Below, piece after piece: positions 5,000-48,425 of a stretch of 64,000 nucleotides of DNA. The first letter of the stretch is position 1, and each line of letters starts with the position of its first letter. The DNA comes from an uncultured Verrucomicrobiota bacterium (GTDB lineage Bacteria > Verrucomicrobiota > Verrucomicrobiia > Limisphaerales > CAYMCQ01): assembly GCA_964389025.1 (NCBI GenBank), contig CAYMCQ010000002.1, forward strand, positions 29,867 through 93,866. The letters are read 5' to 3'. A program made the translations under genes and the position numbers. The notes beneath the pieces were generated by a model. The model did not search any database. It was not told the origin of the DNA and was given only the letters and a program-made list of their open reading frames with translations.

Positions 5000-5012
5000 T
5001 GGCGGAGAGAGA
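5000..5012 (+). repeat. att core, left copy (TGGCGGAGAGAGA), duplicate of the tRNA-Ser 3' end
   Basis: Identical 13-mer at 48334-48346, which is the reverse complement of the tRNA-Ser 3' end including CCA. Confidence 0.88.
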
Positions 5013-5038
5013 CCTTTACGCACCCCTTTTGCCACCTG

Positions 5039-5570: not shown

Positions 5571-5592
5571 AATCATATTCGAACCTCGTTGG

Positions 5593-7377: not shown

Positions 7378-8247
7378 TCACCGACCTTGTTGCTCCATTG
7401 CCGTCAGTTGTTTCTTCAACGACTCCATCAATGACCGGTCCTCACAATCAATTATAAAACTACCTGTTTCCAACGGAGCTCTGATTTTTGGCGCGGAAAT
7501 GGGTTCGTTGTCCACCGTAATTAAAACCTTCAGAGAAATGTTCGTTTCTGTTATGGCCTTCAGTTTGGCGGCGTCTTCCTCAGTCAGAAAGATACCGAAC
7601 GACCAGTTTGTGCGATTGTGACCTTCTGATAACACTCGTTCCTCTAAGGTCACTTCCTTCAACCTACGAACTGTCAATGATGGAGTTCGACCGATAAAAC
7701 CTAGTTTGGGGAAACGCTCGTTGTCAATGAATCGGAGGTCACCACTAGGATCGTTATGGACAATAAAAAATTGAAGCGTAGAAGAGCCGCCTAGTCTTTT
7801 GTCGACTGCTAGAACGTCTTGTTTCCGTGAGGTATCCGCAGAACCCACGTAGAAGCAACCCCAGTTCGCCAAATGCCCATTGGTAATCCCAACTGCAACT
7901 CCGGCTACATAGGTCCCTTTCATATCGTCGTCAGCAGGAAAGGCCGGTAAGCTGTAATGCCATATTTGCCGAGCCTTGCCCAAGTCTTCTATCCAACGAG
8001 GTTCACCAAAAACTGCAGCAATCTCATTCGTTTTCATACCGGGCAAGAGAATCCGCCGCAGATCAGTCGTGCTTCGTATGAGTTGTTGAGTTCGGACATC
8101 TTCACTACCCCGGCGCGATCCGACTGTATCATTATTCTTGGTGCCGCAACCGAAGAGAGCGACAGTTGAAACGACAGCTCCACAGAAGATTAGACAGACT
8201 GTGGCGAGCGAAATACTGTGCGCCTTACCAGAGGAACATTTTTTCAT
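7378..8247 (-). CDS. lipoprotein, putative RHS immunity protein (SmpA/BamE-like N-terminal motif)
   Basis: Lipobox-like 'VALFGC' and 'LPGMKTNEIAAVFGEP...WHY'. Its start overlaps the RHS stop by 23 nt. Confidence 0.65.
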   Translation of the reverse strand: MKKCSSGKAHSISLATVCLIFCGAVVSTVALFGCGTKNNDTVGSRRGSEDVRTQQLIRSTTDLRRILLPGMKTNEIAAVFGEPRWIEDLGKARQIWHYSLPAFPADDDMKGTYVAGVAVGITNGHLANWGCFYVGSADTSRKQDVLAVDKRLGGSSTLQFFIVHNDPSGDLRFIDNERFPKLGFIGRTPSLTVRRLKEVTLEERVLSEGHNRTNWSFGIFLTEEDAAKLKAITETNISLKVLITVDNEPISAPKIRAPLETGSFIIDCEDRSLMESLKKQLTAMEQQGR

Positions 8248-11200
8248 ATGCTGGAACTGATTTATCTCCCTTAGGACAGCCAGGCTTCAACACTTTACCG
8301 GGTGTTTCGAATTCCTTCTGTGCTGCTGAACAAGGTTGGTCATCAAGATAAGCCATAACCCTCTTAATGCTAATCCGTCCTGAGAGACATCCTTGGCTTT
8401 TACAGAAGAGCATTACGCAACATCGTTCGCTTGACTGCCATCCCTTCATCTGGCTTCTGCATATCTTGATTCCGTCTTGTAATTCCCACCGATTGAAGAT
8501 GTCGTTCCACATGTCTGCACACATATTCAATGCATCCACCCCGGCTCCTGTTGCCGGGGAACTCGGGGTCCCTGTAGGTGGCGACTTTGGGGAACCCGAA
8601 CTAGGCTTTCCAGGAGGAGCAGGTGGAGGGGTCTTGGGTGGGGGTAAAGGGGGATCTCCTGGTCCCGGTGCTGGCCAGTTTGGTGGAATGACAGGGTTGG
8701 GAATTGGACCTTTATCTTGGAGACCTAAGAGATCCACAAAGTAAATGGGGTCGTTACGAACAAATTCATAAAGATTCAACCCTCCCCACTCCTCGATGGG
8801 ATCGCGGCTTAACCAAGCCAAGTCGGGTCGGCGGACGCGAAATTCGTAGAGCTCAATGTCCGTTGTCCGGTCGTTTCGCTTGGTCGAAAACTGGAAGCGG
8901 TTCTCATCGGCCATGGCTCCTGTGCTGCGCAACACCGTGCCAAATGGATCGTATTCGTAAAGCGCGCTCACGATCCCGTCACTGGCCTTGACCAGTGCAA
9001 CTACATTTCCGTTCCCGTCGTAGGCGTAGAAATGCGCCCCATTTGCCGCGCTGTTTAACATCAGCAAGCCGCCCACTCCACCAGCGCCATCCAGCGTGCT
9101 GCTCAAGTCCAGCCCCCAGACGTAAGAGCTCACAAGTGCATTGTCCGCCGCGTTCAACTCCGCAATACAACGCCAGCCGTCGCTCACGAACTTCAAATCT
9201 TCGGTAACCACATAACTGCCGCTGCTTCCGTTGTATGTCGTCTGCCGGATACGTCGGCCTTTGCCATCGTATTCCCAAGTGACTCGCCGCTTCGAGGCGG
9301 TTGGCGACGAAGATAGACTCTCCACTTTCGTCAGCCGATTCTCTCCATCCCACGTGTAGTTCCATCGCCCGTCACTGGTGAGATTTCCGTCCAGGTCGTA
9401 GCCGAACGCTTCCGGCGTCTGTGGCACGAACTCGTGGCGGGTCACAGGGTTTTCACCAGTTGCGGTCACGTCCACCTGGTGCCAGACGGGGGCGGTGTCA
9501 TTTGCCACAGTGAGTTGCTTGCGGAAGTATTCGCCTTTGCGATATGCGGCTGGAGTGGGGTCATTCACCTCCACCGTGCTGGTGGCCAGTGCAATGCCCA
9601 TTACGTCCACCGCACCGGGCACGGTGCGGCTGGTGTATTGGTTCAAGTTGTTTGGCGTGTAAGTGGCCACGCGCAGGTTCGCCCCGTTCTCATCGCCGCC
9701 GGCCTTGGTGCTCTTGCGATTTCCGATGTCATCGTGTGCATACTCGAACTGCTGGCCGGGCACGGGATAACCGTCGTTGAAATACTTCGCGCCACGTTTC
9801 ACCTGGCCGAGCGAATCGTATTCGTAGAGCCAATACGAGCCGTCGGCAGTCGTGTTGCGCGTCCGCTGGTTGGCGGAGTTGTATTGGTAAGAGTAAGAAA
9901 CCGGCTGTTGACCGGACGCGGCGGGCGCGCTGCCGATCACCGATAGCCGGTTCAAATAATCATATGACTTGGTCGTCGTCATGCGCGGTGTCGTGTTTTG
10001 TTTGAAGGTCACGGTGCCCACCAGCAGCGAGTTGGCAAGATAACCATACGTGGCGGTTTGCGTGCCATCGGAAACGGTGGCGAGGCGCGAAGCGGTGTCG
10101 TAAGAATTGGTTGCATGTGTTAATAGCGTTGAACCGTTAAGAGTGGAAAGATTGGTGCGGCGCAGATATGTGTCGTAACCATTCGTCACGGACAGACCGT
10201 TCAAAGTGCCGCCTGTGTAAGTCTCGGTCAGCAATTCATTGGCATCGTTGTAAGTCAGCGTGGTTACCGCACTCCCTTGTGTGATGGTGTTTTTTCGGCC
10301 CCGGCGATCGTAGCCATAGGTCACCGTTGGCGTACTCTGAGGATCGTTGGAATAGGTCACCGTCTGAAGGTCTCCCGCAGGGTTGTAAGCATAAGTGGTG
10401 GTGACGCCGCGTTCCCAATGCCGCTTCCAGAGCCTTCCCGAACCGAGGTATTCGTAATCCAGCGTGTTGTCGGTTTCACCGTCATACACCTTTTTCTCCA
10501 GCCAGCCGCGGTATTGGTTGTAGTTCCACGTCGTCGTCGTGGGCGCGCCGGTGCCGCCGGCGAAGTTCTGCCACGTCATCATCGTCTTCATGCGCCCGGC
10601 GTAATCGTAGAAGTATTCCACCGGATAGGTGCGCGAGCCGTAGGTTTTCTTAAGCAGTCCGGTGGGGAAGAATTCGCTTGTCACACTCGTGCCGTCCGGC
10701 TGCGTCACGTTCGTCGCGCGGAGCGAGGTGTCGTAATAGGTGGTCGTGGTTTGTGCGGCTTGGCCGTTGCCGGGTATGGGCGTGGTGACGGTGGCAGTCT
10801 GATCAGCGTTGTTGAAGGTGTAGGTTGTCGTGCCGTTGCGCGCGTCCTTCATGGTGTTCTGGCGACCGTGGGCGTCGTAACCGTAAGTGGTCTTGGTGAT
10901 TTGCGCAGGTGCGGAACTGAATCTCGTAACGGTGTTCAGGAAACCTGACTTGTAAACGGCCACCGTGGATGAGCCGTCCGGAGACGTGGCCGTGGCGGTC
11001 CGAGTCCAACCGTTCCCGGAAGTGGCAATTTGTGTTATCGTGCTGGTCGTGACAGCGGTGGCAGGATTCGCGGCGTCCTTATAGACCGTTGACCAGGTTT
11101 TCAAACCGTCAGTGGAAGTTTCGGTGGTGCTAACTTTTGCCACCGCATCGGAATCGTCCGTAGTCCACACCTCGATATCAGTCCGCGTAATGTCCACGCC

Positions 11201-14109: not shown

Positions 14110-17100
14110 TTACTTCAGAGGCGTGAATACCTGCAAGCCGGTGCCCGCAGCCAAACCATTCGGCGAGTTGTAAACCTGCCACGAGGTTGGATCATTTGCT
14201 CCATTCCCGTCGCCGTTGGCATCTTCAAAATAATCCGGCAATCCGTCGCCGTCGGTATCTACGGGTTGGTCGCTGCCGTTCACCGCGACGTAATGGAAGC
14301 CGATGTCCACCGTGGAGGTGGGTACTTCCTTCACCTGATCGGCTGTGGTGGTGTAGTGATACAGCGCGGCATTGGTGGCATAGCGGCTGCCGGCGTCGAT
14401 CAGCAGGCTTAAATTTCCACCGGTAGTCGGGTAGTAGTAACTTCCCAACGCGCCACTTTGGTAATCAGCATTCGCCACCGTGACGTCATGCCCACCCGAA
14501 CCGGGAAGTTGCGTCGTGCTATGATAACCGTTGTAGTCGTTTGGCCAGGGTTCGCTCCCGTCATTGCTCAAATTCACCGTGTCAAAGAGATTGTCAAAGA
14601 CATACCAGGCAGCATTGGCAGTATTGTCCTCTAAACTTACGGTGCCGCCCAGGAACAGGTTGTTGTATAAAAGAGTCTGCAACGGCGTTTGATCCTCGCC
14701 CGGCATCGGGAAAAGGCTATGTCCTTGAGTTACTTTAAAATTGACCCGCTGCACCAAACAGTTCGTGAACGACACGGTCGCCAGTTGACAACCAAAACAG
14801 AACGGGTTTGAAATCCCCAAATCCATGAATCCGCCCCGCCAGAAGCAGTCCCTTAATGCGATGGCCTTGAAGCCAAGTAAGTTATTGTGAACAAAATACC
14901 GTTTGTGATAGGCATCACTCAACAAGGATATGTCCGTAAACCGCATCCGCACTTCGGTGTATGAAAAGAAATCCATCATTTGAATCACGGACATGGTCGA
15001 ACCGGTAGTCCCCCAAACCGATGACTGTTCCTGCACGGCCTGATAACGCACGAACCGGTTGAGATTGATCGGTGTGCCTTCACTGTAAATTTTCCCGCCC
15101 TTTCTTAGTTGGATTCCGTTCGTCCCGTAAACCCCAATCGCGACCCCGTTGGTCAACGTCAGCGTAGCGTTTGTAAGTGCGACGCCGCTCATCACATAAT
15201 CAAGCGGGTCGTAGTGATAACCCAGATCGGGTGCATCTGTATCCCGCTGGGCTTGGGGATTAAGCGTCGTGTTGATCATGATTGCGTTTGTGAGAATGAT
15301 TGGCGGATACGTCGTTTTCGTTTCCAGTTCAGCCAGCAGCCATGGGCTGATGTCGGTCGTTCCTGCGTCGCGGTAAGTGCCGTCGGCCAGATAATAGTTG
15401 CCCGCGCCCACACTTTGAAAAGCGCTTCCGTCAACTTCCTCGGTGTGGTCAGTGGTAAGGGTGCACTGCGTCTGGTCGGGAACGCCCAACAGCAGACTGT
15501 TTGCCAACGATATCTGGTTAGCGGTGGTGCCGAAACCGAAATTGGCGCAACTGTCAATCGTCAGGTGCTCGCCGTGGATATTCACTGGCGTTCCGTTGTT
15601 TGGTCCTTCTTCCTCATTACAGCCACCGCACCAGAACAGCGTTACAATGTTCGTGAACAACCCATTCTGAACATGGAGATTAGCGCCGCCCTTCATCCCG
15701 ATATAACAGTTGAGCAATTGAACGTTCCGGAGGTAAATGTCGCCAGAATCGGGGAATCGGAACGCGCTTACCAAATAGTTCACCCGCAGATGTCGCAGGT
15801 CAGTAAGGTTTTCCGACACGCGCAACACGTCACAGGCACTGCCGTGAAACTCATTCCCATTTCCGCCGTAGTAGCCGGTGCTGCCGAAATACCCGTTTGG
15901 CGTCCCGCAGCTGCCGGAAATCCTTTCGCCAACCGTGTCGTCGTCCATCGCGGTGAAGATGGCCGGTCTGTAAGCCGTCGTCTGGCAATCAATCGGGCCA
16001 TTGAACGAAATGGTTCCAGCCGGGTCACCAGAAGTATTTTCGGGCGAGCGACCGAATTTCACCACGGTTCCGCCTTCAATTGTGCTCGTTCCGTCCAGAT
16101 TAACGTCCCCACTGCAAAAATATGTCGTATCGCCCTGGAACGTGAAATCTGTGCTGCTCGCGAGCGCTGAATAGTCCAGCACGAAACCGGGCTGCCCGTA
16201 AATATCCAGTTGGGCAAGTTCTATCGGCTTGTCAGATGTGCCTGTCGGCAAGGCCGGCAGCTTCCTCTCAATGCTAGCCAGATTTTGGAATTTCTTCGTG
16301 TCAGGAAGCGCCGCCTGTGGCTTCTCCGGCAAAGTTTTCAGCGTGCTTTCGATCCGTTTGTATTGAACTTCCTCGACCAAAAACTTTCTCCCGTCCAGCA
16401 CCGTCCACTGTTTCACCACCGGCACGCTGGACTTTTGATTGGCCTCAGCGCCAATAGCAAATGCTTTCCCTCTGCCGATTTTCATTTCACCGAAATCAAG
16501 TTTCTCATCCGTCAGACCGACTTGCCCGTCAACGACCACTTGTTCTTTCACCGGCTCGGGCGGATCGAGAAATTCTGTGAGCACTTGCAGACGAGTCGTT
16601 GCTGGATCAAGCCCCCACTCACTCGGCGATGGCGGTTGCTCGCGCAAAATGATGTCCTGCTCCAGCCCGGCTTTCGTGAGCGTGTAAAGCACGTCGGCCT
16701 TCACGTCGGTAAAAGCGTTTTGGTAAATGATTTTGTTCTTGGATGGCAGAAGAAACCCGTCCGCATCCTGCAACTCGGCTATCAACACGCTCTTGCCACT
16801 CGCCGTATCGAAATAACTCAATCCAAGAATGTGGCTCTTGAGATTTTTGCCGTCGGGCGTGAGAAGTTCCACTGCGCCCGCCACGTTGACGTTTCCATCG
16901 AACGAAACCTTGTGAGGAGTCTTGCTTGCAACCGCGCCATCCTGAGCGATCTCTATCACAGTGCTGGATTCTTTCCACTCGCCGTTGTCAAAATAGTGCA
17001 TCGAAGTTTCAAGTTCTGTGTAAGCCGAGTTCGTGCGCCCGATGACTTTTCCAGCCTTGTTTGTTTCGTAAGTCACCTGCGCCCACACACGGTGATTGGC

Positions 17101-17208
17101 CCCGCGTTCGGATATGGAATAGTCCGATGCGCCTTCGGGATTGGCACCGGAAGAATTCAGGGCGTGAGCAACCAATAAAACGCATGAGAATAACGCGAGA
17201 GTTTTCAT
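14110..17208 (-). CDS. large secreted beta-rich protein (1032 aa) upstream of RHS
   Basis: Signal peptide 'MKTLALFSCVLLVAHA', two internal 'DAG...D(L/I)G(Y/F)HY' modules, and a C-terminal Ca-binding-like 'DTDGDGLPDYFEDANGDG'. Confidence 0.8.
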   Translation of the reverse strand: MKTLALFSCVLLVAHALNSSGANPEGASDYSISERGANHRVWAQVTYETNKAGKVIGRTNSAYTELETSMHYFDNGEWKESSTVIEIAQDGAVASKTPHKVSFDGNVNVAGAVELLTPDGKNLKSHILGLSYFDTASGKSVLIAELQDADGFLLPSKNKIIYQNAFTDVKADVLYTLTKAGLEQDIILREQPPSPSEWGLDPATTRLQVLTEFLDPPEPVKEQVVVDGQVGLTDEKLDFGEMKIGRGKAFAIGAEANQKSSVPVVKQWTVLDGRKFLVEEVQYKRIESTLKTLPEKPQAALPDTKKFQNLASIERKLPALPTGTSDKPIELAQLDIYGQPGFVLDYSALASSTDFTFQGDTTYFCSGDVNLDGTSTIEGGTVVKFGRSPENTSGDPAGTISFNGPIDCQTTAYRPAIFTAMDDDTVGERISGSCGTPNGYFGSTGYYGGNGNEFHGSACDVLRVSENLTDLRHLRVNYLVSAFRFPDSGDIYLRNVQLLNCYIGMKGGANLHVQNGLFTNIVTLFWCGGCNEEEGPNNGTPVNIHGEHLTIDSCANFGFGTTANQISLANSLLLGVPDQTQCTLTTDHTEEVDGSAFQSVGAGNYYLADGTYRDAGTTDISPWLLAELETKTTYPPIILTNAIMINTTLNPQAQRDTDAPDLGYHYDPLDYVMSGVALTNATLTLTNGVAIGVYGTNGIQLRKGGKIYSEGTPINLNRFVRYQAVQEQSSVWGTTGSTMSVIQMMDFFSYTEVRMRFTDISLLSDAYHKRYFVHNNLLGFKAIALRDCFWRGGFMDLGISNPFCFGCQLATVSFTNCLVQRVNFKVTQGHSLFPMPGEDQTPLQTLLYNNLFLGGTVSLEDNTANAAWYVFDNLFDTVNLSNDGSEPWPNDYNGYHSTTQLPGSGGHDVTVANADYQSGALGSYYYPTTGGNLSLLIDAGSRYATNAALYHYTTTADQVKEVPTSTVDIGFHYVAVNGSDQPVDTDGDGLPDYFEDANGDGNGANDPTSWQVYNSPNGLAAGTGLQVFTPLK

Positions 17209-30163: not shown

Positions 30164-30272
30164 CCTGGTCAAAGCGACCGCACTTCCCCGCTGAAGTGCC
30201 GTCCGCGCTTCCAGTTGAGAATCCCCAAACCAGAAGCAACCCGCATGGGTGGACGGCAAGAAAGTGAGTTCT

Positions 30273-31589
30273 ATGAAAAGTGACGTATATCAGATCATAA
30301 CGGACAGGATTGTTCGCCTGCTCGAATCGGGAACCGTTCCCTGGCACAAGCCGTGGAAAGGCGGAGATCAGTGGCCACAAAACTTTGTGAGCCGGAAGGT
30401 GTATCGGGGAATCAATCTGTTTCTCCTAAACACAGCCGGATACCCATCTCCATACTGGCTGACTTTCAAGCAGGTTCAAATGCTTGGAGGTTCGGTGAAG
30501 AAAGGTGAGCGCTCGTTTCCAGTTGTGTTCTGGAAAATGTTCAAGGATGAAGAGGACGGTGAAACCAAGAACATTCCGTTCCTTCGCTATCACAGCGTCT
30601 TTAATGTCGCTCAATGTGAAGGAGTCAATGTTCCCGTCATTCAAATGGGTGAACCCAAGCCGCAGTTTCAAGCGATTGAGAACTGTGAACGGGTGGTGAG
30701 AGGTATGCCCAAACCACCTGCCATCAATCACCATGGCGTCCGTGCCTGCTATTCCCCATCGCAAGATGAGATCAGTATGCCGGAGGCGATACTGTTTGAA
30801 ACGAGTGCGGACTATTACAGCACGCTCTTCCATGAGTTGACACATGCCACAGGGCACGTCTCCAGATTGAACCGCAAGGGAATCACCGACCCGATTAGGT
30901 TCGGAAGCGATCCATACAGCCGGGAGGAATTGGTTGCTGAAATGGGTTCTGCGTTCTTGTGCGGTCACTGTGAGATTGAGAACAAGACCATCGCTCAATC
31001 CGCCAGTTATATTCAAAACTGGTTGGAGCGGCTGAAGGAGGACCGGAAGCTTGTGGTTCACGCGGCGGCACAGGCCCAAAAAGCGTGTGACTTCATCCTC
31101 GACAGAAAAGTGGAGGATGAAGGGCCGACAGAATACCAGCCGAAGGAGTTCAAGGTGGTTGCGCTACGAGAATGTCCGGTGCCAGAGTCCATGCAGATGT
31201 GTGACACGCCAGACGGTGCAGCCGACTATTGGCGGTTGCACGTCGCCACCAATCCATACTTCAACCCAGAGTGCGAATGTTTCGCCGTGCTGCTTTTGAA
31301 CACACGAAGGCGGGTGAAGGGGCATCACTTGGTGAGCATCGGCACGTTGGACACAATTCTTGTGAATCCGCGAGAAGTGTTCCGAGTTGCGGTCATCGGA
31401 AGCGCGGCGGCAATCGTGCTCATGCACAATCATCCGAGCGGCGACGCGACTCCCTCAGAAGCAGACATCAAAGTGACGCGCGATTTAATCCGCGCCGGGC
31501 AGCTTCTCAAAATCGAAGTGCTTGACCACGTCGTCATGGGGAATCCGAGCCGAGTCTCATTGCGAGAGCTAGGGTTCTTCTATTCGTAA
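30273..31589 (+). CDS. ArdC-like antirestriction protein (ssDNA-binding + zincin) fused to a RadC/JAB domain
   Basis: 'VYQIITDRIV..LE.GTVPWHKPW', 'YRGINLF', 'TLFHELTHATGH' and 'EELVAE', then 'HNHPSGDATPSEAD...LDHVV'. Confidence 0.9.
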   Translation: MKSDVYQIITDRIVRLLESGTVPWHKPWKGGDQWPQNFVSRKVYRGINLFLLNTAGYPSPYWLTFKQVQMLGGSVKKGERSFPVVFWKMFKDEEDGETKNIPFLRYHSVFNVAQCEGVNVPVIQMGEPKPQFQAIENCERVVRGMPKPPAINHHGVRACYSPSQDEISMPEAILFETSADYYSTLFHELTHATGHVSRLNRKGITDPIRFGSDPYSREELVAEMGSAFLCGHCEIENKTIAQSASYIQNWLERLKEDRKLVVHAAAQAQKACDFILDRKVEDEGPTEYQPKEFKVVALRECPVPESMQMCDTPDGAADYWRLHVATNPYFNPECECFAVLLLNTRRRVKGHHLVSIGTLDTILVNPREVFRVAVIGSAAAIVLMHNHPSGDATPSEADIKVTRDLIRAGQLLKIEVLDHVVMGNPSRVSLRELGFFYS

Positions 31590-33072: not shown

Positions 33073-34480
33073 CTGAGCTCACGTTCTCGCAAAAAAACCA
33101 GACCTCACGGTGCATCGGATCGCCCGTTTTCTTAAAATGGGCAATCTGATTCGCATATCGTCCGGAGGTGCCCAATCTTTTGCCGTCTTCGTCTAAAAGG
33201 CATTCAAGATCGAGCCATTCTTGCCCGAGCACGCTATTTTTTCGTAATGCTGGATGCGGCTTGTAAAGAAGGAGATCTTTTGATTGAGAATTTAGTTGGT
33301 TCACCAAACCCAAAACATCCGAGAGATCCTTGGAAGCCTTCAATTCCCAACATCCAAGCGGATCAAAAACTTGGCCGGCGGCCAATCTGTTTGTCAGCAA
33401 ACGGCTTTTCGGCTCGTCTGATTCTCGCATATGTCCCAATAACTCGTCATCTCCCATCAAGAGATAAGCTGTTAGCTGCTGTCTGTTTAAGCCAGAAGCC
33501 TTCAGTCGATCCAAGTATTCACCCAAAGACCAATTACACATTGCATCAAGTGACATGCTTTTGGGATGGAGAAAACAATCCAGTGTCAAACGTTCTCTCA
33601 TGTGGAGCAACGATAACGCGTGGCCGACCGCTTCGCGATCCAACCTCATCTTCACCGGCGGTGAAGTTTTCGTCCCCTCTATCGTTAGCCCATGCAGAAG
33701 TGCCTGATAATTAAATCCAATTTCTAATCCAGTAAATTCACTGTCACGCCTGTAATGATCAATCCGATCTAAATCAAGTAACCCGCTTGTCAATGCGTGA
33801 AGAATTCGAGCTTGTCTCTTCCGACGGTCATCGCCCGTTTGTAGGTATACCTCGTTGCCGGTAATAAGGTAACAAAGCAAGTCAACCTCTAGACGATTCC
33901 TTCCACTGGCCTCCTCCATGTTTTCAATCACATTCCGAATACGCGGCGGATTGTCTGCACCCTTCGAAGCGATAGACATAGCTTCCGTGGCCAAACCACG
34001 ACCCAAAATTATGTCGCAAGCCACCTCTTCATGATTGAGCTTGACCCCTAACAGCTCGGTGATTTTTGTATTACCCTCGATGAGATGAGAAAAAGCGAAA
34101 TGACCTAAATCGTGAAGTAATAGCGCAATCAAGAACTCCTCCTCCCACTGTCGACGTCCTAGCCACTTACCGAGTACATCAGTATCATTACCTTCATCGG
34201 GGTCGGAAATTTTGACGGAAGCAGAAGCAGCGAAGCCCAAATGGCAGCATCCGAGGGAATGTGCAAATCGTGTGTGAGTTGCTGATGGGAACACGAGATA
34301 TAACAAACCAGATTGTCTCAATCGTGAAAGCCGGGTGAATTCAAATGAATCAATCAATGGAGTTACAGCCTTTCTCACATGAGAGTCCCCCGAGACGCTG
34401 AAAGCACTCCTCGGTCTTGAACTTACCGGGTCTTGGAGCACTACAACCTTATAAAGAGGATCAAAATAACCCCGCTTCAT
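33005..34480 (-). CDS. HD-domain phosphohydrolase (SAMHD1/YdhJ-like dNTP triphosphohydrolase)
   Basis: 'RLSRLRQSGL...VFPSATHTRFAHSLG', 'LLHDLGHFAFSH' and 'LDLDRIDHYRRD'; the H-HD-D set is intact. Confidence 0.88.
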   Translation of the reverse strand: MKRGYFDPLYKVVVLQDPVSSRPRSAFSVSGDSHVRKAVTPLIDSFEFTRLSRLRQSGLLYLVFPSATHTRFAHSLGCCHLGFAASASVKISDPDEGNDTDVLGKWLGRRQWEEEFLIALLLHDLGHFAFSHLIEGNTKITELLGVKLNHEEVACDIILGRGLATEAMSIASKGADNPPRIRNVIENMEEASGRNRLEVDLLCYLITGNEVYLQTGDDRRKRQARILHALTSGLLDLDRIDHYRRDSEFTGLEIGFNYQALLHGLTIEGTKTSPPVKMRLDREAVGHALSLLHMRERLTLDCFLHPKSMSLDAMCNWSLGEYLDRLKASGLNRQQLTAYLLMGDDELLGHMRESDEPKSRLLTNRLAAGQVFDPLGCWELKASKDLSDVLGLVNQLNSQSKDLLLYKPHPALRKNSVLGQEWLDLECLLDEDGKRLGTSGRYANQIAHFKKTGDPMHREVWFFCENVSSGAAKRTRRELSASNLWERQCSI

Positions 34481-35241
34481 GTGGCCCCTTTCGCTATCTT
34501 TTTTGCCAAGCGAGAATATTCCTCATGGACAGTTGCGTTCTCTGCTTTTCCACTTTGTACAATTAATGAGTCATCAAAATAGCGAAGCGGATCGTATGGA
34601 ATAATAAAATCGGGCTTCTGACGAACTTCTTTCTGAAAGAGCGTGAGTGCTGCGTTCAGTTTAGGGCTGTTAATGGGGACAGCGTTCGCCACAATGCTGT
34701 AACTGATGCCTCGCTCGCGAAAAATTGTCCTCAGCCCACGGACACCTTGTCGATTTTGTTTATCCAATCTGCACGAAATCACGGCCTGAGTCGCTAATTG
34801 CAAACTAAAAGCTGCCTGCAACGAAACACCACTACGTGTATCGAGAAGAAGGTGATTTAAGTCGAATGATGACTGCATCGCTTTAAATAGATTTCGCAAG
34901 TACGCTGTTGTGCTTGCTTCCGTCCATCTAACTTGATCGTTCAAATCCGCATTGCCAGAACATGGAAGGCATAAGACGCGGACTTCCTTTGCTATTGAAA
35001 TCTCGACTGCATGTTTTTCCACATCGGCAACAGATGCGTGTTTTGCCAGCAGTTGTAAGAGATCGTGTTTTTCAGTGTCAATGTCGTACAGCGTAGCCAG
35101 GCTTGGGGCCTCAATGTCTAAATCTACAATTCCGACCTTTAACCCTTCACGTGCCAAAATCGCCGCAACATTTAGCACGGTCGATGTTTTGCCAGTACCG
35201 CCTTTGTGGGAATAGAATGTTGTGATGGCTTGTTTACTCAC
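34477..35241 (-). CDS. MinD/ParA-family ATPase
   Basis: Deviant Walker A 'FYSHKGGTGKT', 'VDLDIEAP' and 'LLDTRSG'; its stop overlaps the HD start (ATGA). Confidence 0.88.
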   Translation of the reverse strand: MSKQAITTFYSHKGGTGKTSTVLNVAAILAREGLKVGIVDLDIEAPSLATLYDIDTEKHDLLQLLAKHASVADVEKHAVEISIAKEVRVLCLPCSGNADLNDQVRWTEASTTAYLRNLFKAMQSSFDLNHLLLDTRSGVSLQAAFSLQLATQAVISCRLDKQNRQGVRGLRTIFRERGISYSIVANAVPINSPKLNAALTLFQKEVRQKPDFIIPYDPLRYFDDSLIVQSGKAENATVHEEYSRLAKKIAKGAT

Positions 35242-35243
35242 AG

Positions 35244-36662
35244 TCAGTTTTTGGTGCTACGTTTTTTACGGCTCTTTCCAGAACTCGAATGGGCCGCTTG
35301 CGGCTTTCGTTTTGGTCCGCCTCGTGATGCCCGTTGCATCTTGCCTAAAATTTTCTCGGTGTCCTCATGGGCCGCATAATTGTATAAGCCATCGGCAACA
35401 ATTTTCGCAATCGTGTCCAAAATTTTCGCCTCTGTTAGGACTTCTTTAATTTGTGGTTTTAGCTTCGCTAAATTGAGATTTAATTCCACGTCCAAGTCAC
35501 TGAACTCATCTCCGAAGAGTAACAAGTCTGTCACAATACTCGGCATCGCAGAAACGGAAACTTCGCCGTTATACCATAGATTCGAGTCGGGATCCTGCAT
35601 TGCGAACAGTTCGTTTCGGAATCCGTCAACCTTCTGTCTAAATTCGTCTTCTTCTGTAATTTTTTTCAATCCCTCGCACCGCTTCATCTCAACGAGGGTC
35701 GTGATAATACCGCCATGCTCAGTTCGATGTTCGAAGTAGGTTCCTGATCCACTCGCCGAGATTGTATGATGAAAAACCTTTTTTCCTTTGATAGGTTCTT
35801 TGAGTAAATTTAGAAACCCCTCTGCCACAGCTTCAACTATGCGCTGTTGCTCCTTGTCCAGTTCCTTCCAGCAAACGAGGAGGGCCCTCAGCCCCCAACA
35901 GCTATAGACTAGTTTTTCGTACGGTGTTAAATTCTTAGGTTCAAAATTGGTCTCCGCTCCCGAGAAGATAACTCCGTCCTTTGAGCAACTTAAAATATAT
36001 TTGCATGCGCCTTTGACAAGCGCTTTTGCTTTTTCACAACGTGTCGGTTCCCAAAAATCTTTCATCCTTGGATGACGAGCGCAACGCTCTACGGCAAGCA
36101 CAAACACAGCAGTAAAATATGTATTATATGGTGTTGGCCCTCCCCGTTGATTCACATTGGTCGGAGCCCAAGCGCATCCCGAACTTTCACTTCGATGAAA
36201 GTTTCCCTCCGTGGTCAACAAGTCAAAGGCCTTTATTGCGAATAGGCGGAGAATGTCTTCACCAATGGCGACGCTTCCCTCTGAATCAAGAATGTCACAA
36301 CAAAGATGAAGAACATCGCAAGCGAAGTCGACAGCTTGATCGTCTTTGCAAACATGAAACGAATATGGGCTTGGGAAAAAACCGTCCGAATTTATGAGGG
36401 TGAAAACATTTTGAACATCTTTTTCAAGCCATGGCTTTACAACCTTTTCAATGCGGCTCCAGACGCGAGAATATTTCGCTGCTTTAATAAAGCAGGAAAG
36501 TGCATCGAGGCGTTTATAGGACTGCGTTTCTGTAGGCTCCCTTTCCACCTCATCGTCCTGCCACTTCCCATCATCACTGCGGCGGTTCGACAAAGCAATT
36601 AATGAATCAACAAGTTGCTTATGTGTAGCGTTCGTATTTCCAACGATTCGCGGTTCAGCCAT
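35244..36662 (-). CDS. hypothetical helical protein, possible (alpha/alpha)-barrel with QW-like repeats
   Basis: Repeated 'SDDGKW', 'NSDGFF', 'SKDGVI' and 'QDPDSNLW' turns; basic C-terminal tail; ends 2 nt before the ParA GTG start. Confidence 0.65.
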   Translation of the reverse strand: MAEPRIVGNTNATHKQLVDSLIALSNRRSDDGKWQDDEVEREPTETQSYKRLDALSCFIKAAKYSRVWSRIEKVVKPWLEKDVQNVFTLINSDGFFPSPYSFHVCKDDQAVDFACDVLHLCCDILDSEGSVAIGEDILRLFAIKAFDLLTTEGNFHRSESSGCAWAPTNVNQRGGPTPYNTYFTAVFVLAVERCARHPRMKDFWEPTRCEKAKALVKGACKYILSCSKDGVIFSGAETNFEPKNLTPYEKLVYSCWGLRALLVCWKELDKEQQRIVEAVAEGFLNLLKEPIKGKKVFHHTISASGSGTYFEHRTEHGGIITTLVEMKRCEGLKKITEEDEFRQKVDGFRNELFAMQDPDSNLWYNGEVSVSAMPSIVTDLLLFGDEFSDLDVELNLNLAKLKPQIKEVLTEAKILDTIAKIVADGLYNYAAHEDTEKILGKMQRASRGGPKRKPQAAHSSSGKSRKKRSTKN

Positions 36663-43469: not shown

Positions 43470-46400
43470 GTGAGCCAACGATTCTACACCGAACGCGAAA
43501 AGCTCTTAGACGATTTTTTTCTCTGGGAGCTTCCCGGGCGCGGAATCCAGGTATGGGGGTTGCCGGTCTTCCCCGAGCCGCAGTTCCAGCCCTTTCGCGG
43601 ACACTGGTTGCCCGTATCACCCGCGCCTCAAATTGAAATACCTCCGCCGCTCCTGGTCCGCTTTTTCGATAACATTGTTGATGCATTCACGGACAGTCCG
43701 AAAACGCCAGTGGCGGTGCCTCCGGTCATTGACGCCACGCCGATACTTCCAGACAAAAGCTTCTTCGATTTTACTCACCGGAAGATCATCGAACTGGAAA
43801 TCACCCTGCCACAGGCGGAAACTATTTCTCGCGACCTCTGCGAACAGTTTTTACTCGGGCTTTCGTTTTGCCGCCATCCCGTCAGTTTTGAGGTCGTGGG
43901 AACCGCAGGCTCAATCCATATCCAATTCGCGGTTGACGAAGCGGATGCAGCACTCATACAGCAACAACTCTCTGCTCACTTTCCGTCCGTCTGCATCACA
44001 AAGAACGACCGGCTCCTTGCCGATCTGTTGCTTGGGCCTGAGGAACCGTTTGGTGGATTTGCCGAATTCCGACTCGCGCACGAGTTCATGCGGCCGCTTG
44101 CAACCGTCCGTAATCTCACTGCCGATCCGCTGGTTGGAATCACCGGCGCATTGGCCGGGCTGCGGGAGAAGGAAGTTGGTGTGTTCCAAGTCATCTTTCA
44201 GCCAGTCAAGCACCCGTGGGCAGAAAGCATGTTGCGGGCGGTCACGTGGGAGGACGGTAGCCCGTTTCTGGATTCAACGCTTGTGGCGCAGACACGTCAG
44301 AAGACGTCGCGTCCTCTCTTTGCCACAGCGATTCGCGTTCTTGGACAGAGCAGCAGCGTAGAGCGAGGCGAAGAGATTGCCCGGGGATTGGCTGCGGCAT
44401 TGTCGGCCTTTTCTGAACCCTCATCCAATGAACTCGTGACTCTGGAAAACTTGGAACTCGAATTCTTGGAGATGTGCGGCGATGTCATCCGCCGCCGTAT
44501 ACGGCACAGCGGGATGATTCTCAACAGCGACGAGATCGTCTCGCTCGTCCATCCCCCGTCGCCCTCGGTCAAAACCTCCAAGCTCCGGCGCGAGACCGAG
44601 AAGACCAAAGCCGCGCCTGCAATTGCCTGCGGCCATCGGCTGATTCTTGGAAGCAACGAAAGCGACGGTGAGACGAATTCAGTGACGCTCTCTTCCGACC
44701 ACCGTGTTCGCCACATGCACGTTCTTGGCGCGTCAGGCACCGGCAAATCCACATTCCTCCTCAATCTAATTCGTCAGGACATTGAGAACGGTGAAGGGCT
44801 GGCGCTGCTTGACCCGCACGGAGATTTGGTGGATGCAGTGCTTGCCGACATCCCGGAATCGCGCATTGACGATGTTATTCTGATTGATCCATCAGATGCG
44901 GAGTTTCCGGTTGGCTTCAATATTCTCTCTGCCCATTCAGAGCTTGAAAAGAATCTTCTCGCTTCCGACTTGATTGCCGTGTTTCAGCGTTTGTCCACCA
45001 GTTGGGGTGATCAGATGAATTCAGTCTTTGCCAACGCGATACTTGCCTTTTTGGAAAGCGAGCGCGGTGGAACGCTTGCTGATTTGCGGCGGTTTCTTGT
45101 CGAGAAGGAATTTCGCGCTGATTTTCTCACGACGGTCAAAGACCCCGAGGTTGTCTATTACTGGACCAAGCAATATCCCTTGCTCAAAGGTGTTCCCCAA
45201 GCGCCGCTATTGACCCGGCTCGATACGTTTCTGCGGCCAAAACCGATCCGCTATATGGTTTCGCAACATGCGAACCGGATCAATTTTGCGGAGATCATGG
45301 ACGAGCGGAAAATATTTCTCGCCAAGCTTGCGCAGGGAGCCATCGGAGAAGAGAACGCATACCTTTTGGGAACGCTGCTCGTGTCAAAATTCCACCAGTT
45401 GGCGATTGGACGACAGCAGTTGGAGGAAGCGCAGCGGCAATACTTTTGGTGCTACATAGACGAGTGCCACCACTTCGTCACGCCCTCAATGGCTTCCATC
45501 TTAAGCGGCGCTCGCAAGTATCGGCTGGGCCTCGTTCTCGCGCATCAGGAGCTTTCGCAGCTTCAGCACTGCTCCGACGTGGCCAGCGCCATCGTGACGA
45601 ATCCCTACACACGGATTTGTTTTCGGTTAGGCAGCGAGGACGCCCGCAAATTTTCGGATGAATTCTCGTTTTTCGACGCGAAGGATTTGCAAAACCTCGG
45701 AATCGGCGAAGCCATCGGGCGCATTGAGCGCAGCGACTTTGATTTCAATTTGGCCGTTCCGTTTAGAGAGAAACGAGATCCAAATGAAGCCTTGCGGCGC
45801 AGGCAAGAGGTCATTACAGCTTCGAGAAGAAAGTATGCAATGCCGAGAGCGGAGGTTGAGACGATTCTGAAATCCGTCATCACCACCAAGCCAGACGTTG
45901 ACAACAAGCCGCCGCCGACTGCGCCCCCAATCGCTCCCGCTGTTTCAGAGCCACCGAAGCCCCCTCCAATTCCAAAGACCACTGTTTCGGGGGAAAAAGA
46001 AATGGTTACTGCGCCAAGCAAAGCAGAGCCGCCGCGTGATTTGGGAAGGGGCGGAGCGCAGCACAAGGCCATTCAGCTTCGAATCAAGCATGCAGCGGAA
46101 GAACTCGGTTTCCGCAGCGTTATTGAAAGGCCAATTCTCGACGGCCAGGGCAGTGTGGATTTGTGGCTTGAACGAGATGGGCAGGGCATCGCCTGCGAAA
46201 TATCCGTCACCACCACCATTGACCATGAAGTGGGCAATGTCGCCAAGTGTCTGAAGGCCGGAGTTCCGAACGTGGCGGTGATTTGCGTTGATGAAAGCAG
46301 GCTGCGCAAGATTGCCTCTGCGGTTTTGGGAAGTCTTGGGGCGGAATCGGCGGGACGGGTGGAATATTTTGAGCCAGACCAGTTCATCGCGAATCTGAAG

Positions 46401-46550
46401 ACATTGCCGGTCGAGACTCCGACTGAGCAAACCCGAGTCTCGCGCGGATACAAAGTGAAGCGCGTGGTTTCAGAGTTTTCAGAGGCCAAGCGAAAGGAGA
46501 GAGAAGCCGCCGCCATTCGCGCCATCGCGGACTCGATGCGCAAACGATGA
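43470..46550 (+). CDS. VirD4/TraD/HerA-like ATPase (type IV coupling-protein-like) with a C-terminal PD-(D/E)xK-like domain
   Basis: Walker A 'HMHVLGASGTGKS', 'LLDPHGDL', Walker B 'YIDECHHF', 'ARKYRLGLVLAHQ', a Pro-rich linker, then 'VDLWLERDGQGIACEISVTT'. Confidence 0.85.
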   Translation: MSQRFYTEREKLLDDFFLWELPGRGIQVWGLPVFPEPQFQPFRGHWLPVSPAPQIEIPPPLLVRFFDNIVDAFTDSPKTPVAVPPVIDATPILPDKSFFDFTHRKIIELEITLPQAETISRDLCEQFLLGLSFCRHPVSFEVVGTAGSIHIQFAVDEADAALIQQQLSAHFPSVCITKNDRLLADLLLGPEEPFGGFAEFRLAHEFMRPLATVRNLTADPLVGITGALAGLREKEVGVFQVIFQPVKHPWAESMLRAVTWEDGSPFLDSTLVAQTRQKTSRPLFATAIRVLGQSSSVERGEEIARGLAAALSAFSEPSSNELVTLENLELEFLEMCGDVIRRRIRHSGMILNSDEIVSLVHPPSPSVKTSKLRRETEKTKAAPAIACGHRLILGSNESDGETNSVTLSSDHRVRHMHVLGASGTGKSTFLLNLIRQDIENGEGLALLDPHGDLVDAVLADIPESRIDDVILIDPSDAEFPVGFNILSAHSELEKNLLASDLIAVFQRLSTSWGDQMNSVFANAILAFLESERGGTLADLRRFLVEKEFRADFLTTVKDPEVVYYWTKQYPLLKGVPQAPLLTRLDTFLRPKPIRYMVSQHANRINFAEIMDERKIFLAKLAQGAIGEENAYLLGTLLVSKFHQLAIGRQQLEEAQRQYFWCYIDECHHFVTPSMASILSGARKYRLGLVLAHQELSQLQHCSDVASAIVTNPYTRICFRLGSEDARKFSDEFSFFDAKDLQNLGIGEAIGRIERSDFDFNLAVPFREKRDPNEALRRRQEVITASRRKYAMPRAEVETILKSVITTKPDVDNKPPPTAPPIAPAVSEPPKPPPIPKTTVSGEKEMVTAPSKAEPPRDLGRGGAQHKAIQLRIKHAAEELGFRSVIERPILDGQGSVDLWLERDGQGIACEISVTTTIDHEVGNVAKCLKAGVPNVAVICVDESRLRKIASAVLGSLGAESAGRVEYFEPDQFIANLKTLPVETPTEQTRVSRGYKVKRVVSEFSEAKRKEREAAAIRAIADSMRKR

Positions 46551-46787
46551 TCACTTGCGTTCGAGGCGAAAGAGCGGCCCGACAACTCGGTAGGAGGAAT
46601 ACTTTTCAATCAGACGAATACGCAGGGCTGTCAGGCTTTGCTCCGGATTTTCTTCCGCCAGTTGCACAGAAGGCCGGCCAACGCCCAACCCTGCCGCAGC
46701 CTCTATTTTCGTCCGCCCCGCCTTTTCTCGGAATTGTTTGGCGAGTGATCCGAGTTCAGCTTCGGCAACAATCTTTTTCATGCTCAT
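46551..46787 (-). CDS. XRE-family HTH protein, divergent from the integrase (candidate regulator/RDF)
   Basis: 'LAKQFREKAGRTKIEAAAGLGVGRPSVQLAE'. Confidence 0.7.
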   Translation of the reverse strand: MSMKKIVAEAELGSLAKQFREKAGRTKIEAAAGLGVGRPSVQLAEENPEQSLTALRIRLIEKYSSYRVVGPLFRLERK

Positions 46788-46869
46788 GCTACAGTTGTCG
46801 GAAAAAAGTTCGCGTTTTGCAAACTATTTTCTTGCAACGCGACCGTGCTTTTTGATATGAAGTCGTGCT

Positions 46870-48390
46870 ATGAAGGAAAATAGTGCCTTGAAAAAACGTG
46901 TCGGCGTCTGGATTCGGGTTTCAACCGAAGATCAGGCCAAAGGAGACTCGCCCCAAATCCACGAAGCCCGCGCTCGCGAATACGCTAGGTTTAACGACTG
47001 GAATGTTGTCGAGGTGTATGACCTTGCCGGAGTCTCGGGCAAGACCATCATGGAGCATCCCGAATGCAAGCGGATGATGGCCGACGTGCGCAAGGGACAT
47101 ATCACGGGCTTGATTTTTTCCAAGCTCGCCCGTCTCTGCCGCAACAAGAGTGAGCTTGAGGATTTTGCCAAGTTCTTCCGCGACCACAACGCGGACATGA
47201 TTTCGCTCCAAGAGAAGATCGACACCTCGACACCCGCCGGACGCCTCTTTTACAGCATGATTGCGGCAATGGCACAGTGGGAGCGCGAGGAAACAGTAGA
47301 TCGCGTGAAAGCATCTATCGTCACCCGCGCCAGGCTCGGCAACCCAACCGGTGGTGCATCGCCCTTTGGCTACCAGTGGAAGGACAAGAAGCTCATCATT
47401 GACCCCAAGGAAGCGCCAGTGCGCAAACTCATGTATGAACTCTTCTTGAAACACCGGCGCAAAAAGACCGTAGTTCGACTTTTGAACGAGGCCGGCCACC
47501 GCACGCGCAAAGGCGGGCGTTTCACCAGCAAGACGTTCACGCGGTTGATTCAAGACCCCACCGCCAAAGGCATCCACAGAGCCAACTACACCATGCGAAA
47601 CGGCTCGCAGTGGACACTGAAGCCCGAAAACGAATGGTATTTGCATGAAGTTGAACGGTTGGTATCCGATGAAGTGTGGGAAGAATGCAACCGCATCATT
47701 GACGATTCGTTTGCCAATCAAAAACGACCGGCCAAAAAGCCCGTTCATATTTTCGCAGGCGTGGCAGTGTGCGAATGCGGCGAGAAAATGTATGTGCCGT
47801 CCAACACCCCCAAATACGTCTGTCGCGCGTGCCGTAACAAAATCAGCATTGCCGATCTCGATTCGATTTACATGGACGAAATCAAAGACTTTTCCCTCTC
47901 ACCGGAAGCCATCGGCAACTATCTCAAAAGCTCGAATGATACTGCCGCTGAGAAAGAGCGCCTTTTGGCAGTCACCCGACAGGACTTGGAAAACACCGAC
48001 AAAGAGATTCGCCGCACCTACGACCTCTATCAAAAAGAGCAAATCGACGGGGACGGATTCGCCAAGTTCTATCAACCGCTCCAAGAGCGTCGCAAACAGC
48101 TTGAAGCGGCCATTCCCCGCCTTGAAGCCGAACTCGACATACTCAAAGTGGAGAGCCTTTCAGCCGAAGAAATCGCTCTCCAAGCCCAAAACCTTCACCA
48201 CCGCTGGCAGGCCATGCAACCGGAAGAAAAGCGTGAACTCATTGAAATCATCACCAAGGAAATCATCATCGGCAAAGACGAAATCACCATAAACTACTGC
48301 TACGCTCCTTCTTCTAAAGAAATGGCAAAAAGGTGGCGGAGAGAGAGGGATTCGAACCCTCGATACGGTTTAACCCGTATAACGGTTTAG
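46870..48390 (+). CDS. large serine recombinase (element integrase); 3' end overlaps the att core and antisense tRNA-Ser
   Basis: 'WIRVSTEDQ' catalytic Ser, 'FSKLARL', 'GASPFGY', Zn ribbon CECG...CRAC and a coiled coil; C-terminal 'WRRERDSNPRYGLTRITV' is antisense tRNA. Confidence 0.93.
   Translation: MKENSALKKRVGVWIRVSTEDQAKGDSPQIHEARAREYARFNDWNVVEVYDLAGVSGKTIMEHPECKRMMADVRKGHITGLIFSKLARLCRNKSELEDFAKFFRDHNADMISLQEKIDTSTPAGRLFYSMIAAMAQWEREETVDRVKASIVTRARLGNPTGGASPFGYQWKDKKLIIDPKEAPVRKLMYELFLKHRRKKTVVRLLNEAGHRTRKGGRFTSKTFTRLIQDPTAKGIHRANYTMRNGSQWTLKPENEWYLHEVERLVSDEVWEECNRIIDDSFANQKRPAKKPVHIFAGVAVCECGEKMYVPSNTPKYVCRACRNKISIADLDSIYMDEIKDFSLSPEAIGNYLKSSNDTAAEKERLLAVTRQDLENTDKEIRRTYDLYQKEQIDGDGFAKFYQPLQERRKQLEAAIPRLEAELDILKVESLSAEEIALQAQNLHHRWQAMQPEEKRELIEIITKEIIIGKDEITINYCYAPSSKEMAKRWRRERDSNPRYGLTRITV
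48334..48346 (+). repeat. att core, right copy (TGGCGGAGAGAGA)
   Basis: Identical to 5000-5012. Confidence 0.88.
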
Positions 48391-48425
48391 CAAACCGTCG
48401 CCTTCAGCCACTCGGCCATCTCTCC
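48334..48425 (-). tRNA. tRNA-Ser(GCT)
   Basis: GGAGAGATGGCCGAGTGGCTGAAGGCGACGGTTTGCTAAACCGT...GGTTCGAATCCCTCTCTCTCCGCCA: long variable arm, anticodon GCT, encoded CCA. Confidence 0.97.

Follow-up and report, generated by a model that had tools for sequence, protein, structure and literature searches.

A serine integrase gene that spans its own predicted attachment site in a Verrucomicrobiota mobile element and may gain a helix-turn-helix tail on excision

The integrase gene and its attachment sites

We analyzed a 64,000-nucleotide (nt) stretch of DNA from an uncultured Verrucomicrobiota bacterium (Limisphaerales; contig CAYMCQ010000002.1, positions 29,867 to 93,866), hereafter the window, in which a 43.3-kb mobile element is integrated at a tRNA-Ser(GCT) gene. 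The integrase gene of this element, int, runs across the right-hand attachment site and takes its last codons from the antisense strand of the tRNA (Table 1). Pfam recognized the catalytic domain of its product (Resolvase, PF00239; E = 1.7e-29, residues 14-157), in which the motif VWIRVSTEDQ is found, as well as the Recombinase domain (PF07508; E = 3.4e-16). The match to the zinc ribbon PF13408 was weak (17.4 bits, under the cut-off), and the four Cys are present (CECG...CRAC). The combination of recombinase domain with zinc ribbon and coiled coil that characterizes large serine recombinases (LSRs) was found from Pfam and from an AlphaFold2 (AF2) model of P0025, a relative 60% identical to Int.

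The 13-mer TGGCGGAGAGAGA occurs in two exact copies only, one at each end of the element, and none of 100 dinucleotide-preserving shuffles of the window contained two matches, even when up to one mismatch was permitted. The right-hand copy is the 3' end of tRNA-Ser(GCT), CCA included. When we rebuilt attP in silico by joining 48286-48346 to 5013-5072, the product read ATGGCAAAAAGG-TGGCGGAGAGAGA-CCTTTACGCACCCCTTTTGCCAC, an imperfect 48-bp palindrome whose dyad centre, between 48345 and 48346, falls on the GA dinucleotide at the edge of the 13-bp identity block. Its outer inverted repeats are ATGGCAAAA and TTTTGCCAC (5027-5035), its inner ones GGTGGCG and CGCACC, and the predicted junction contains GAAATGGCAAAAAGGTGGCGGAGAGAGACCTTTACGCACC and GAAATGGCAAAAAGGTGGCGGAGAGAGACCTTTACGCACCCCTTTTGCCACCTGGTG. 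This predicted layout, i.e., two half-sites of ~24 bp around a 2-bp crossover, is of the standard LSR type, and the in silico site has the properties of serine integrase attP sites in general (40-50 bp, dyad symmetry, 2-bp crossover, short identity). The P-arm architecture is as in the window in five loci of relatives (L001, L005, L002, L099, and L100). The reciprocal join gave an intact tRNA, then a hairpin, then the end of a convergent host gene; its junction contains CTGGAAAAGAAATGGCGGAGAGAGAGGGATTCGAACCC, and it is a plausible empty attB. The hairpin was not called by a simple terminator scan. We take the repeat as more than a chance match because both halves rebuild a palindromic attP centred in the identity block; by this predicted architecture, it is a genuine serine-integrase crossover site.

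Over the right-hand core, int reads AGG TGG CGG AGA GAG, and the protein ends ...KRWRRE/RDSNPRYGLTRITV (the slash marks the junction). At position 5000 the same phase (TGG CGG AGA GAG ACC TTT...) is open to a TGA at 5267-5269; the nearest in-frame stop upstream is a TAG at 4937, and the first canonical start is the GTG at 5039. Recombination between the cores would release a circle of 43,334 bp and join 492 codons of int to 85 codons from the left end, yielding a 577-amino-acid (aa) open reading frame (ORF) whose predicted junction peptide contains KRWRRETFTHPF and whose added part matches helix-turn-helix (HTH) families, namely, HTH_23 (25.0 bits, cut-off 24.6) and HTH_3 (21.6 bits, under the cut-off of 23). 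An earlier note on this DNA, made from its letters, had proposed that the core is repeated at the two ends, that int crosses it and stops in antisense tRNA-Ser as a 506-aa protein, and that excision would fuse int in frame to an HTH-encoding ORF. The uniqueness of the repeat pair and its absence from the shuffles, the ARAGORN call of the tRNA, the open frame, and the HTH matches bear these claims out, and the circle size given there is arithmetically correct.

A promoter-like site upstream of int is position-conserved in the window, L098, and L001. Farther upstream lies a small divergent HTH gene, and L098 has a 79-aa gene at the same position.

Table 1. Features of the window, with coordinates (position 1 is the first letter of the 64,000-nt stretch)
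Feature	Position	Strand	Remarks
Integrated mobile element	5000-48346		ICE/IME-like (integrative and conjugative or mobilizable element); 43.3 kb between core copies; bounded by the sole two 13-mer copies
attL core copy	5000-5012	+	Duplicate of tRNA 3' end; central dinucleotide GA at 5011-5012
attR core copy	48334-48346	+	tRNA-Ser 3' end in antisense; central dinucleotide GA at 48345-48346
tRNA-Ser(GCT), integration target	48334-48425	-	ARAGORN; still intact after integration
attP P arm, ATGGCAAAAAGG	48322-48333	+	Codes Int residues M-A-K-R; inverted-repeat partner of 5027-5035 and 5019-5024
attP P' arm, CCTTTACGCACCCCTTTTGCCAC	5013-5035	+	Codes T-F-T-H-P-F-C-H of the predicted fusion
Hairpin, TTTCTTTCCAG A CTGGAAAAGAAA	4976-4999		Between host gene end (4970) and tRNA 3' end in rebuilt attB; read from sequence
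Large serine recombinase gene int, integrated state, 506 aa	46870-48390	+	Last 14 aa from antisense tRNA
Promoter-like TTGCAA-N18-TATGAA (putative P_int)	46832-46861	+	Consensus-type assignment
Divergent small XRE-type HTH gene, 78 aa	46551-46787	-	Upstream of int; weak Pfam HTH_3 match, E = 4.6e-4
HTH tail, 85 codons in int phase	5013-5269	+	P'-arm peptide, linker, and Cro/CI-type HTH
GTG, candidate independent start of a 76-aa HTH protein	5039-5041	+	Only possible stand-alone start of the tail ORF
Second small HTH-like ORF	5313-5570	+	In a frame other than the tail; lies where the clade-2 second HTH sits; from sequence pattern and position
RHS toxin	8225-14059		Element cargo
Second large serine recombinase, 615 aa	18865-20712	+	23% identical to Int
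ArdC-MPTase-RadC	30249-31589		Element
ParA	34477-35241		Element
Toprim protein			Within element
TrwB/VirD4-like ATPase	43470-46550		E = 3.9e-11; adjoins int

Relatives in split and fused states

The earlier note had named conservation among homologues as the key test of its proposal. A search with the 577-aa fusion returned thousands of LSR homologues, mostly named Verrucomicrobiae or Limisphaerales. Among the best 120, which we tallied, 106 end within 25 residues of the junction column, nine run into HTH tails, and five have other long ends. The relatives fall into two clades, and tail searches were run for each clade separately; a ten-sequence alignment over both clades was too diverse. In clade 1, to which the window belongs, the body of the protein ends ...MA.RWRKG, and the integrated form continues with WDSNPR and a stop, i.e., with antisense tRNA acceptor and T arm. 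In clade 2, the body ends ...QRN[FL], and the fused form continues IPALPFCH... into two tandem HTH domains. The clade-2 attP is a two-tier palindrome, ATGGCA-TCTG-GGCAACGCA-ACTTCATTCC-TGCGTTGCC-TTTT-TGCCAT, where ACTTCATTCC is a spacer (N10), and its symmetry centre coincides with the codon boundary found for the window. Clade-2 elements enter comM/yifB, an Mg-chelatase-like host gene, at the CPCGYYG codons, so that comM is split along with the element's own int; this insertion is seen at L036 (2528-3157, minus strand) and in the upstream flanks of most of L014-L093.

Across both clades, about 25 ORFs span the junction. In more than 100 sequences, int lacks a stop ahead of the crossover. The clade-1 junction-spanning sequences with an intact tail are P0025, P0064, L005, P0123, P0140, P0153, P0175, and P0391-P0395; the last nine proteins (P0123, P0140, P0153, P0175, and P0391-P0395) are fragments from protein searches with clade-1 tails and a junction-spanning profile, which also returned ~95 stand-alone tails. 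Clade 2 contributes seven full-length fusions of 636-702 aa and six more loci at which int and tail are contiguous in one frame. The fused genes in L001, L002, L099, and L100 have element-type genes on either side (TrwB-like, RHS, SMODS-SLATT, and an OLD-family ATPase with a UvrD helicase), which fits the predicted attP state. In L099, a whole contig of 13,748 bp that was checked for signs of circularity, we found no terminal overlap.

The complementary, integrated state was likewise observed. A clade-1 scan of genome collections yielded seven loci in metagenome-assembled genomes (MAGs) at which unrelated host DNA runs right up to TGGCGGAAGGGG, and from there the W-R-K-G phase continues unbroken via PFCH into the HTH. 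The same scan retrieved L005, in which the 3' end of int lies upstream of the tail (the attP state), and two decayed stubs, L011 and L012. For clade 2, a metagenome scan gave more than 389 relatives, and the tail is in frame in all 80 of the loci kept: int is contiguous and in frame in six of them, and the rest are host-flanked or start at a contig end. Likewise, ~70 metagenome loci have unrelated host DNA up to the crossover followed by an intact tail ORF in the same phase. Overall, more than 80 orphan tails adjoin host DNA in this phase and have remained intact. Both ends of a second element were recovered on contig k141_790292, on which a tail (5437-5745) and an int (34873-36375) lie on the same strand ~31 kb apart, with tRNA-Ser(CGA) at the int end and a 12-bp core common to both ends. 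With natural fusions in both clades, orphan tails in phase, and this second two-ended element, the prediction of conservation was upheld.

A tail-profile search of 1.84 billion representative sequences returned 717 tail representatives at E < 1e-30; this count is made up largely of stand-alone tails and of unrelated multi-HTH repeat proteins, and is a measure of family size rather than of the fused fraction. The tail HTH module, with its FLGY.P motif, also occurs in tandem arrays of 3-22 copies (up to 4162 aa) that have no recombinase part (P0241, P0243-P0245, and P0380). One int and two similar stand-alone tails (P0022, P0194, and P0196) may lie on the same 60,326-bp contig, which would suggest tandem elements, or an element and a remnant.

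The two stubs (positions 3001-3063 in each of L011 and L012, the former beside a tRNA-Thr at 3089-3163) consist of core and P' arm, with a 1-nt insertion that leads to a stop after ~20 codons, and they are remnants of lost elements at integration hot spots. The linker of clade-1 tails (..R.DSPP or RWDSNP) is encoded by sequence resembling the antisense of a tRNA T arm: this is seen in the window at 5056-5070 (GATTCGCACC), in L096 at 3077-3092, where the identity to the target tRNA's T arm extends over 16 nt, and in L098 at 4481-4496. The P' side in clade 1 thus appears to be ordered as acceptor-antisense, ~44 nt with the P' half-site and an inverted copy of the P arm, and then T-arm-antisense.

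The helix-turn-helix tail and what its separation may do

A profile of homologous tails searched against the PDB matched P22 C2, 434 repressor and Cro, ICEBs1 Xre, SinR, and HipB, with E-values of 1e-6 to 1e-4. By these matches, the tail, which in the window ends ...FSPQSSPL, is predicted to have the five-helix Cro/CI (XRE, lambda-repressor-like) HTH fold with a recognition helix, a classic operator-binding module. Its coding status was examined in clade 2, in which 77 unique sequences over 72 codons contain two in-frame stops versus 303 and 214 in the other frames. Because synonymous sites are saturated in the clade-2 linker and HTH, we give the ratio of nonsynonymous to synonymous change as pN/pS instead of dN/dS. 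The values are pS 0.41 and pN/pS 0.41 for the P' arm, pS 0.76 and pN/pS 0.48 for the linker, and pS 0.83 and pN/pS 0.34 for the HTH. Synonymous change is depressed in the P' arm, which therefore appears constrained at the DNA level; in the linker and HTH it is saturated while nonsynonymous change is restrained, and these parts therefore appear to be evolving as protein. On these figures, the tail is evidently under purifying selection.

For the natural fusion P0025, AF2 run on an alignment of 44 sequences gave a model with a mean predicted local distance difference test (pLDDT) score of 81. The catalytic, recombinase, and zinc domains and a long coiled coil are modelled confidently (beta-strands 295-322, helical hairpin 341-422), as are the HTH helices (512-567, pLDDT 87-90), and directly after the crossover there is a weak beta-strand, RLVIKGT (496-502, pLDDT ~50-55). 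In this model, the tail folds as a domain of its own and is flexibly tethered. The motif AAGGCCATAAG, which occurs at 5045 and 5371 near the left end, was considered as a tail-binding motif and rejected, being unenriched in the window and unrepeated in other elements.

Downstream of the tail ORF lies a second small HTH-like ORF (Table 1), without a Pfam match. Since clade-2 tails carry their second HTH fused in frame, an ancestral tail with two HTHs was apparently divided in the lineage of the window; of the remaining clade-1 loci, L004 alone hints at a second HTH. A 16-nt inverted repeat (5257-5272/5289-5304, 94% complementary) spans the stop codon of the tail ORF and, located between the two HTH ORFs, could act as a terminator or form a regulatory hairpin.

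Taken together, these data make it probable, though far from certain, that attP lies inside int and that the HTH tail is made essentially only from the circle, as a domain of the integrase. In the proposed mechanism, the LSR would have inserted the element into the 3' end of tRNA-Ser(GCT) by recombining attB with an attP that sits in the codons linking the recombinase body (catalytic, recombinase, and zinc/coiled-coil parts) to the C-terminal Cro/CI-type HTH tail, and crossover at the GA dinucleotide would cut int in two. After integration, attR would then retain the int promoter with 492 codons, which run into the antisense tRNA to give the 506-aa protein, and attL, at a distance of 43 kb, would receive the 85 tail codons, immediately preceded by host DNA. 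Excision would rejoin both parts as one 577-aa ORF, and in the excised or newly transferred circle the tail would be translated as part of the integrase. The tethered Cro/CI-like domain could provide the excised-state enzyme with sequence-specific DNA binding, a function that integration would turn off automatically. The most likely role of the tail is regulatory, with int or the genes for transfer and establishment under its control in the free element; accessory binding close to attP, or an effect on directionality, is less likely. The earlier note had suggested that the domain swap could act as a switch of directionality or autoregulation.

The reasoning behind this interpretation has two parts. 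Firstly, the crossover and the earliest possible start of an integrated tail are only 9 nt apart in clade 2 and 39 nt apart in clade 1, and the flanks upstream of integrated tails vary among hosts, being antisense comM in clade 2; with so little element DNA and so variable a host flank, there is therefore no dependable, element-borne promoter for the tail when integrated. Secondly, int has its own promoter-like site and no stop before the end of the tail, and therefore ribosomes translating the excised int must make the fusion. Both together would make the tail a domain that the integrase has in the excised state. Further weight comes from the layout having outlived a change of target from tRNA-Ser to comM in which the arms were re-made, and from the absence of an int stop ahead of the crossover in more than 100 sequences.

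Several observations weigh against this interpretation. Codon 5039, immediately beyond the palindrome of attP, reads NTG in 11 of 12 clade-1 DNA sequences (GTG in eight, TTG in two, and ATG in one; the sole other codon, GTA, is in a decayed remnant), and a TTG in the arm is kept in 95% of clade-2 sequences, such that the tail could also, or only, act as a free small regulator. Because indels and stops between the crossover and the tail start are barred by the attP geometry, the phase cannot drift, and its conservation would count as roughly one ancestral event, not as an independent one in each lineage. The tail is disrupted in two attP-state sequences, P0026 and P0396. The databases yielded no attP junction of the window's own element, the best fused relative being 60% identical, and motif checks in the window and in other elements found no tail-binding site. 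In the AF2 model, the junction and linker (481-520) have a pLDDT of ~50 and the tail is not confidently docked on the enzyme; the model, which at this junction confidence is uninformative as a test of docking, contains nothing structural that would link the tail to recombinase function. Lastly, the split geometry, the attP architecture, the conservation across two clades, and the purifying selection on the tail have been shown in silico, and support for the whole is of this kind throughout.

These points bear most directly on the explanation that the arrangement is a geometric accident, in which an ordinary XRE gene came to abut attP, once in phase, and a functionless read-through fusion is tolerated. 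We regard this as unlikely, even though the retained NTG codons, at which gene callers often begin the tails, would suit it, as would the flexible, low-confidence linker, a single phasing event with a prior of 1 in 3, and the fact that attP is stop-free in all forward frames, so that an open frame there is uninformative. What argues against an accident is that in the ~25 attP-state ORFs no int stop precedes the tail, and that in the two irregular cases it is the tail itself that is broken. The arrangement also outlasted the switch to comM, and a free regulator would have only 9-39 nt of element DNA upstream when integrated, leaving it without a dependable promoter where it would normally act. 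The candidate starts are non-ATG in the main, and conservation of the clade-2 TTG follows from the arm palindrome itself. The earlier note had held that translation of the tail from its own GTG at 5039 would speak against a fusion; the near-constant NTG in clade 1 is in line with such a start, but that of the window is not preceded by a Shine-Dalgarno-like sequence. Low-level stand-alone tail may be made from the conserved NTG alongside the fusion, and a free tail protein, if made, does not remove the latter.

Another explanation concerns the enzyme rather than the regulator: the excised-state C-terminal segment might occlude or alter the region that binds a recombination directionality factor (RDF), restricting that form to integration, and the tail-less form would respond to the RDF and excise. 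This is rather improbable. The swapped segment does start ~20 residues past the last zinc-domain strand, near the base of the coiled coil, and the AF2 strand 496-502 lies just after the crossover, but the pLDDT of that strand is low (see above), the clade-2 linkers are of different sequence, no RDF candidate was identified in the element, and a Cro/CI-type HTH is a DNA binder, unneeded for occlusion. Some plausibility comes from the speculation that in some LSRs the RDF site is blocked by C-terminal extensions (PMC12286644), and from engineered Int-RDF fusions, which demonstrate that an appendage at the C-terminus can set direction (PMC5737554).

It is very improbable that the repeat at 5000 is a relic of an older element or a chance match, with the true end elsewhere and neither circle nor fusion ever formed: decayed P'-arm remnants do exist near tRNAs elsewhere (L011 and L012), and a second LSR gene lies within the interval, but the tail ORF of the window is intact, unlike these remnants, joining the halves yields a canonical palindromic attP as well as an intact attB, a two-ended layout of this kind is found again on an independent contig, and the second LSR, only 23% identical to Int, was rejected as the enzyme for the present att site.

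Returning to the excision-state domain, we consider a stronger version of it tentatively, as a possibility that we would not favor at present. The circle-only Int-HTH would be the true integration enzyme and would set regulation as well, and integration would commit the element by leaving a tail-less, RDF-responsive form and by removing HTH control. If this were true, the topology of a single ORF would encode the direction of recombination together with gene regulation, and the ~500-aa database proteins of this integrase family would be truncated products, not native integrases.

Element content, significance, and comparison with known systems

The chromosomal-type genes flanking the element encode a sulfatase and an Ig-domain protein on the left and an ABC-2 permease on the right. 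Among the ORFs scanned, Pfam recognized no relaxase or type IV secretion genes, and several large ORFs were without a match. From its gene content (Table 1), the element is integrative and probably mobilizable or conjugative. The second LSR may be part of a nested or accreted element, or an accessory recombinase. In L001, a 1029-aa neighbor of the fused gene is 51% identical to the window's TrwB-like protein; it had been considered as the counterpart of the 1032-aa ORF at 14110-17208 and was rejected as such, since it matches the TrwB-like gene instead. Comparison of L001 10001-16045 (P0025) with 43470-48390 of the window places the TrwB-like gene of L001 on the other strand, downstream of int-HTH; relative to TrwB, the int module has the reverse orientation to that in the window, and gene order is therefore not conserved. 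Fused-state elements also carry cargo of the anti-phage-defence type, i.e., an OLD ATPase beside a UvrD-type helicase (Gabija-like), SMODS-SLATT, and Abi_C (L099 4564-8188, L002 2220-4589, and L100 8119-9622).

Serine integrases are prized for their seeming simplicity: a single protein acts on two short sites, and a separate RDF sets the direction. The layout described here is shared by hundreds of relatives, and an enzyme whose primary structure depends on the recombination state in so large a natural family would add a new layer of control. To our knowledge, reversible assembly of an ORF by the recombinase it encodes is known only from the tyrosine integrases of archaea (SSV1) and, where a repressor is concerned, from mycobacteriophages. 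On the same grounds, genome mining for LSRs in integrated elements would pick up a shortened enzyme that ends in junk residues, the native form of 577-700 aa would be overlooked, and hundreds of orphan "XRE regulators" beside tRNA-Ser and comM in Verrucomicrobial and other MAGs would be accounted for.

Our full-text literature searches found no description of an LSR ORF that spans attP, nor of an LSR with a Cro/CI tail. We thus found no published precedent for a serine integrase with a state-dependent primary structure; the logic is known from SSV1 and BPs, which the earlier note had cited as parallels and which proved apt as analogies, though the window enzyme belongs to neither class. In SSV1-type (Fuselloviridae) integrases, attP lies within the integrase gene, which is partitioned on integration. 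The likeness is close, in that a recombinase ORF spans its own attP, targets a tRNA, is split on integration, and would be restored on excision, but it is confined to the mechanism of gene partition: SSV1 Int is a tyrosine recombinase of an archaeal virus, and the window enzyme is a bacterial LSR without the tyrosine recombinase fold. Moreover, the split parts of SSV1 Int are essential pieces of the enzyme and the integrated copy is dead, whereas here the catalytic and DNA-binding core stays whole and only the HTH is removed. The mycobacteriophages BPs and Brujita have integration-dependent immunity, with attP within the repressor gene. As in those phages, the recombination state would alter the C-terminus of an HTH protein and might thereby switch regulation. 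In these phages, however, the repressor gene is split by a tyrosine integrase and integration removes a degradation tag, making the integrated form active; in the window, attP lies in int itself, and integration would strip the HTH rather than activate it.

Canonical serine integrases (phiC31, Bxb1, R4, A118/LI, and SPbeta SprA) share with Int the domain order, the short identity, the palindromic attP of ~50 bp, and the 2-bp crossover. Their integration reaction requires Int only, and in those that we checked attP lies outside the ORF, in contrast to its position inside int here. We know of no canonical example with a Cro/CI-type C-terminal domain or with a protein sequence that depends on the recombination state. 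Phage R4 was considered as a precedent and rejected, since its attP core (254-265) is 27 bp upstream of the sre coding sequence (292-1701; D38173). A second module on a flexible linker at the C-terminus of an LSR changes its activity in engineered integrase-RDF fusions (Olorunniji et al. 2017, PMC5737554; employed in PMC12286644 as well). These are permanent, synthetic fusions whose RDF drives excision; the present one would be natural, restricted to the excised state, and equipped with a predicted XRE-type DNA-binding module. In the skin/sigK and SPbeta/spsM systems, developmental excision by an LSR rejoins a host gene that integration had split. The likeness is that LSR excision restores a split ORF, and the clade-2 relatives of the window element also split a host gene, comM; in skin/sigK and spsM the rejoined ORF is that of the host, whereas here it would also be the recombinase's own.

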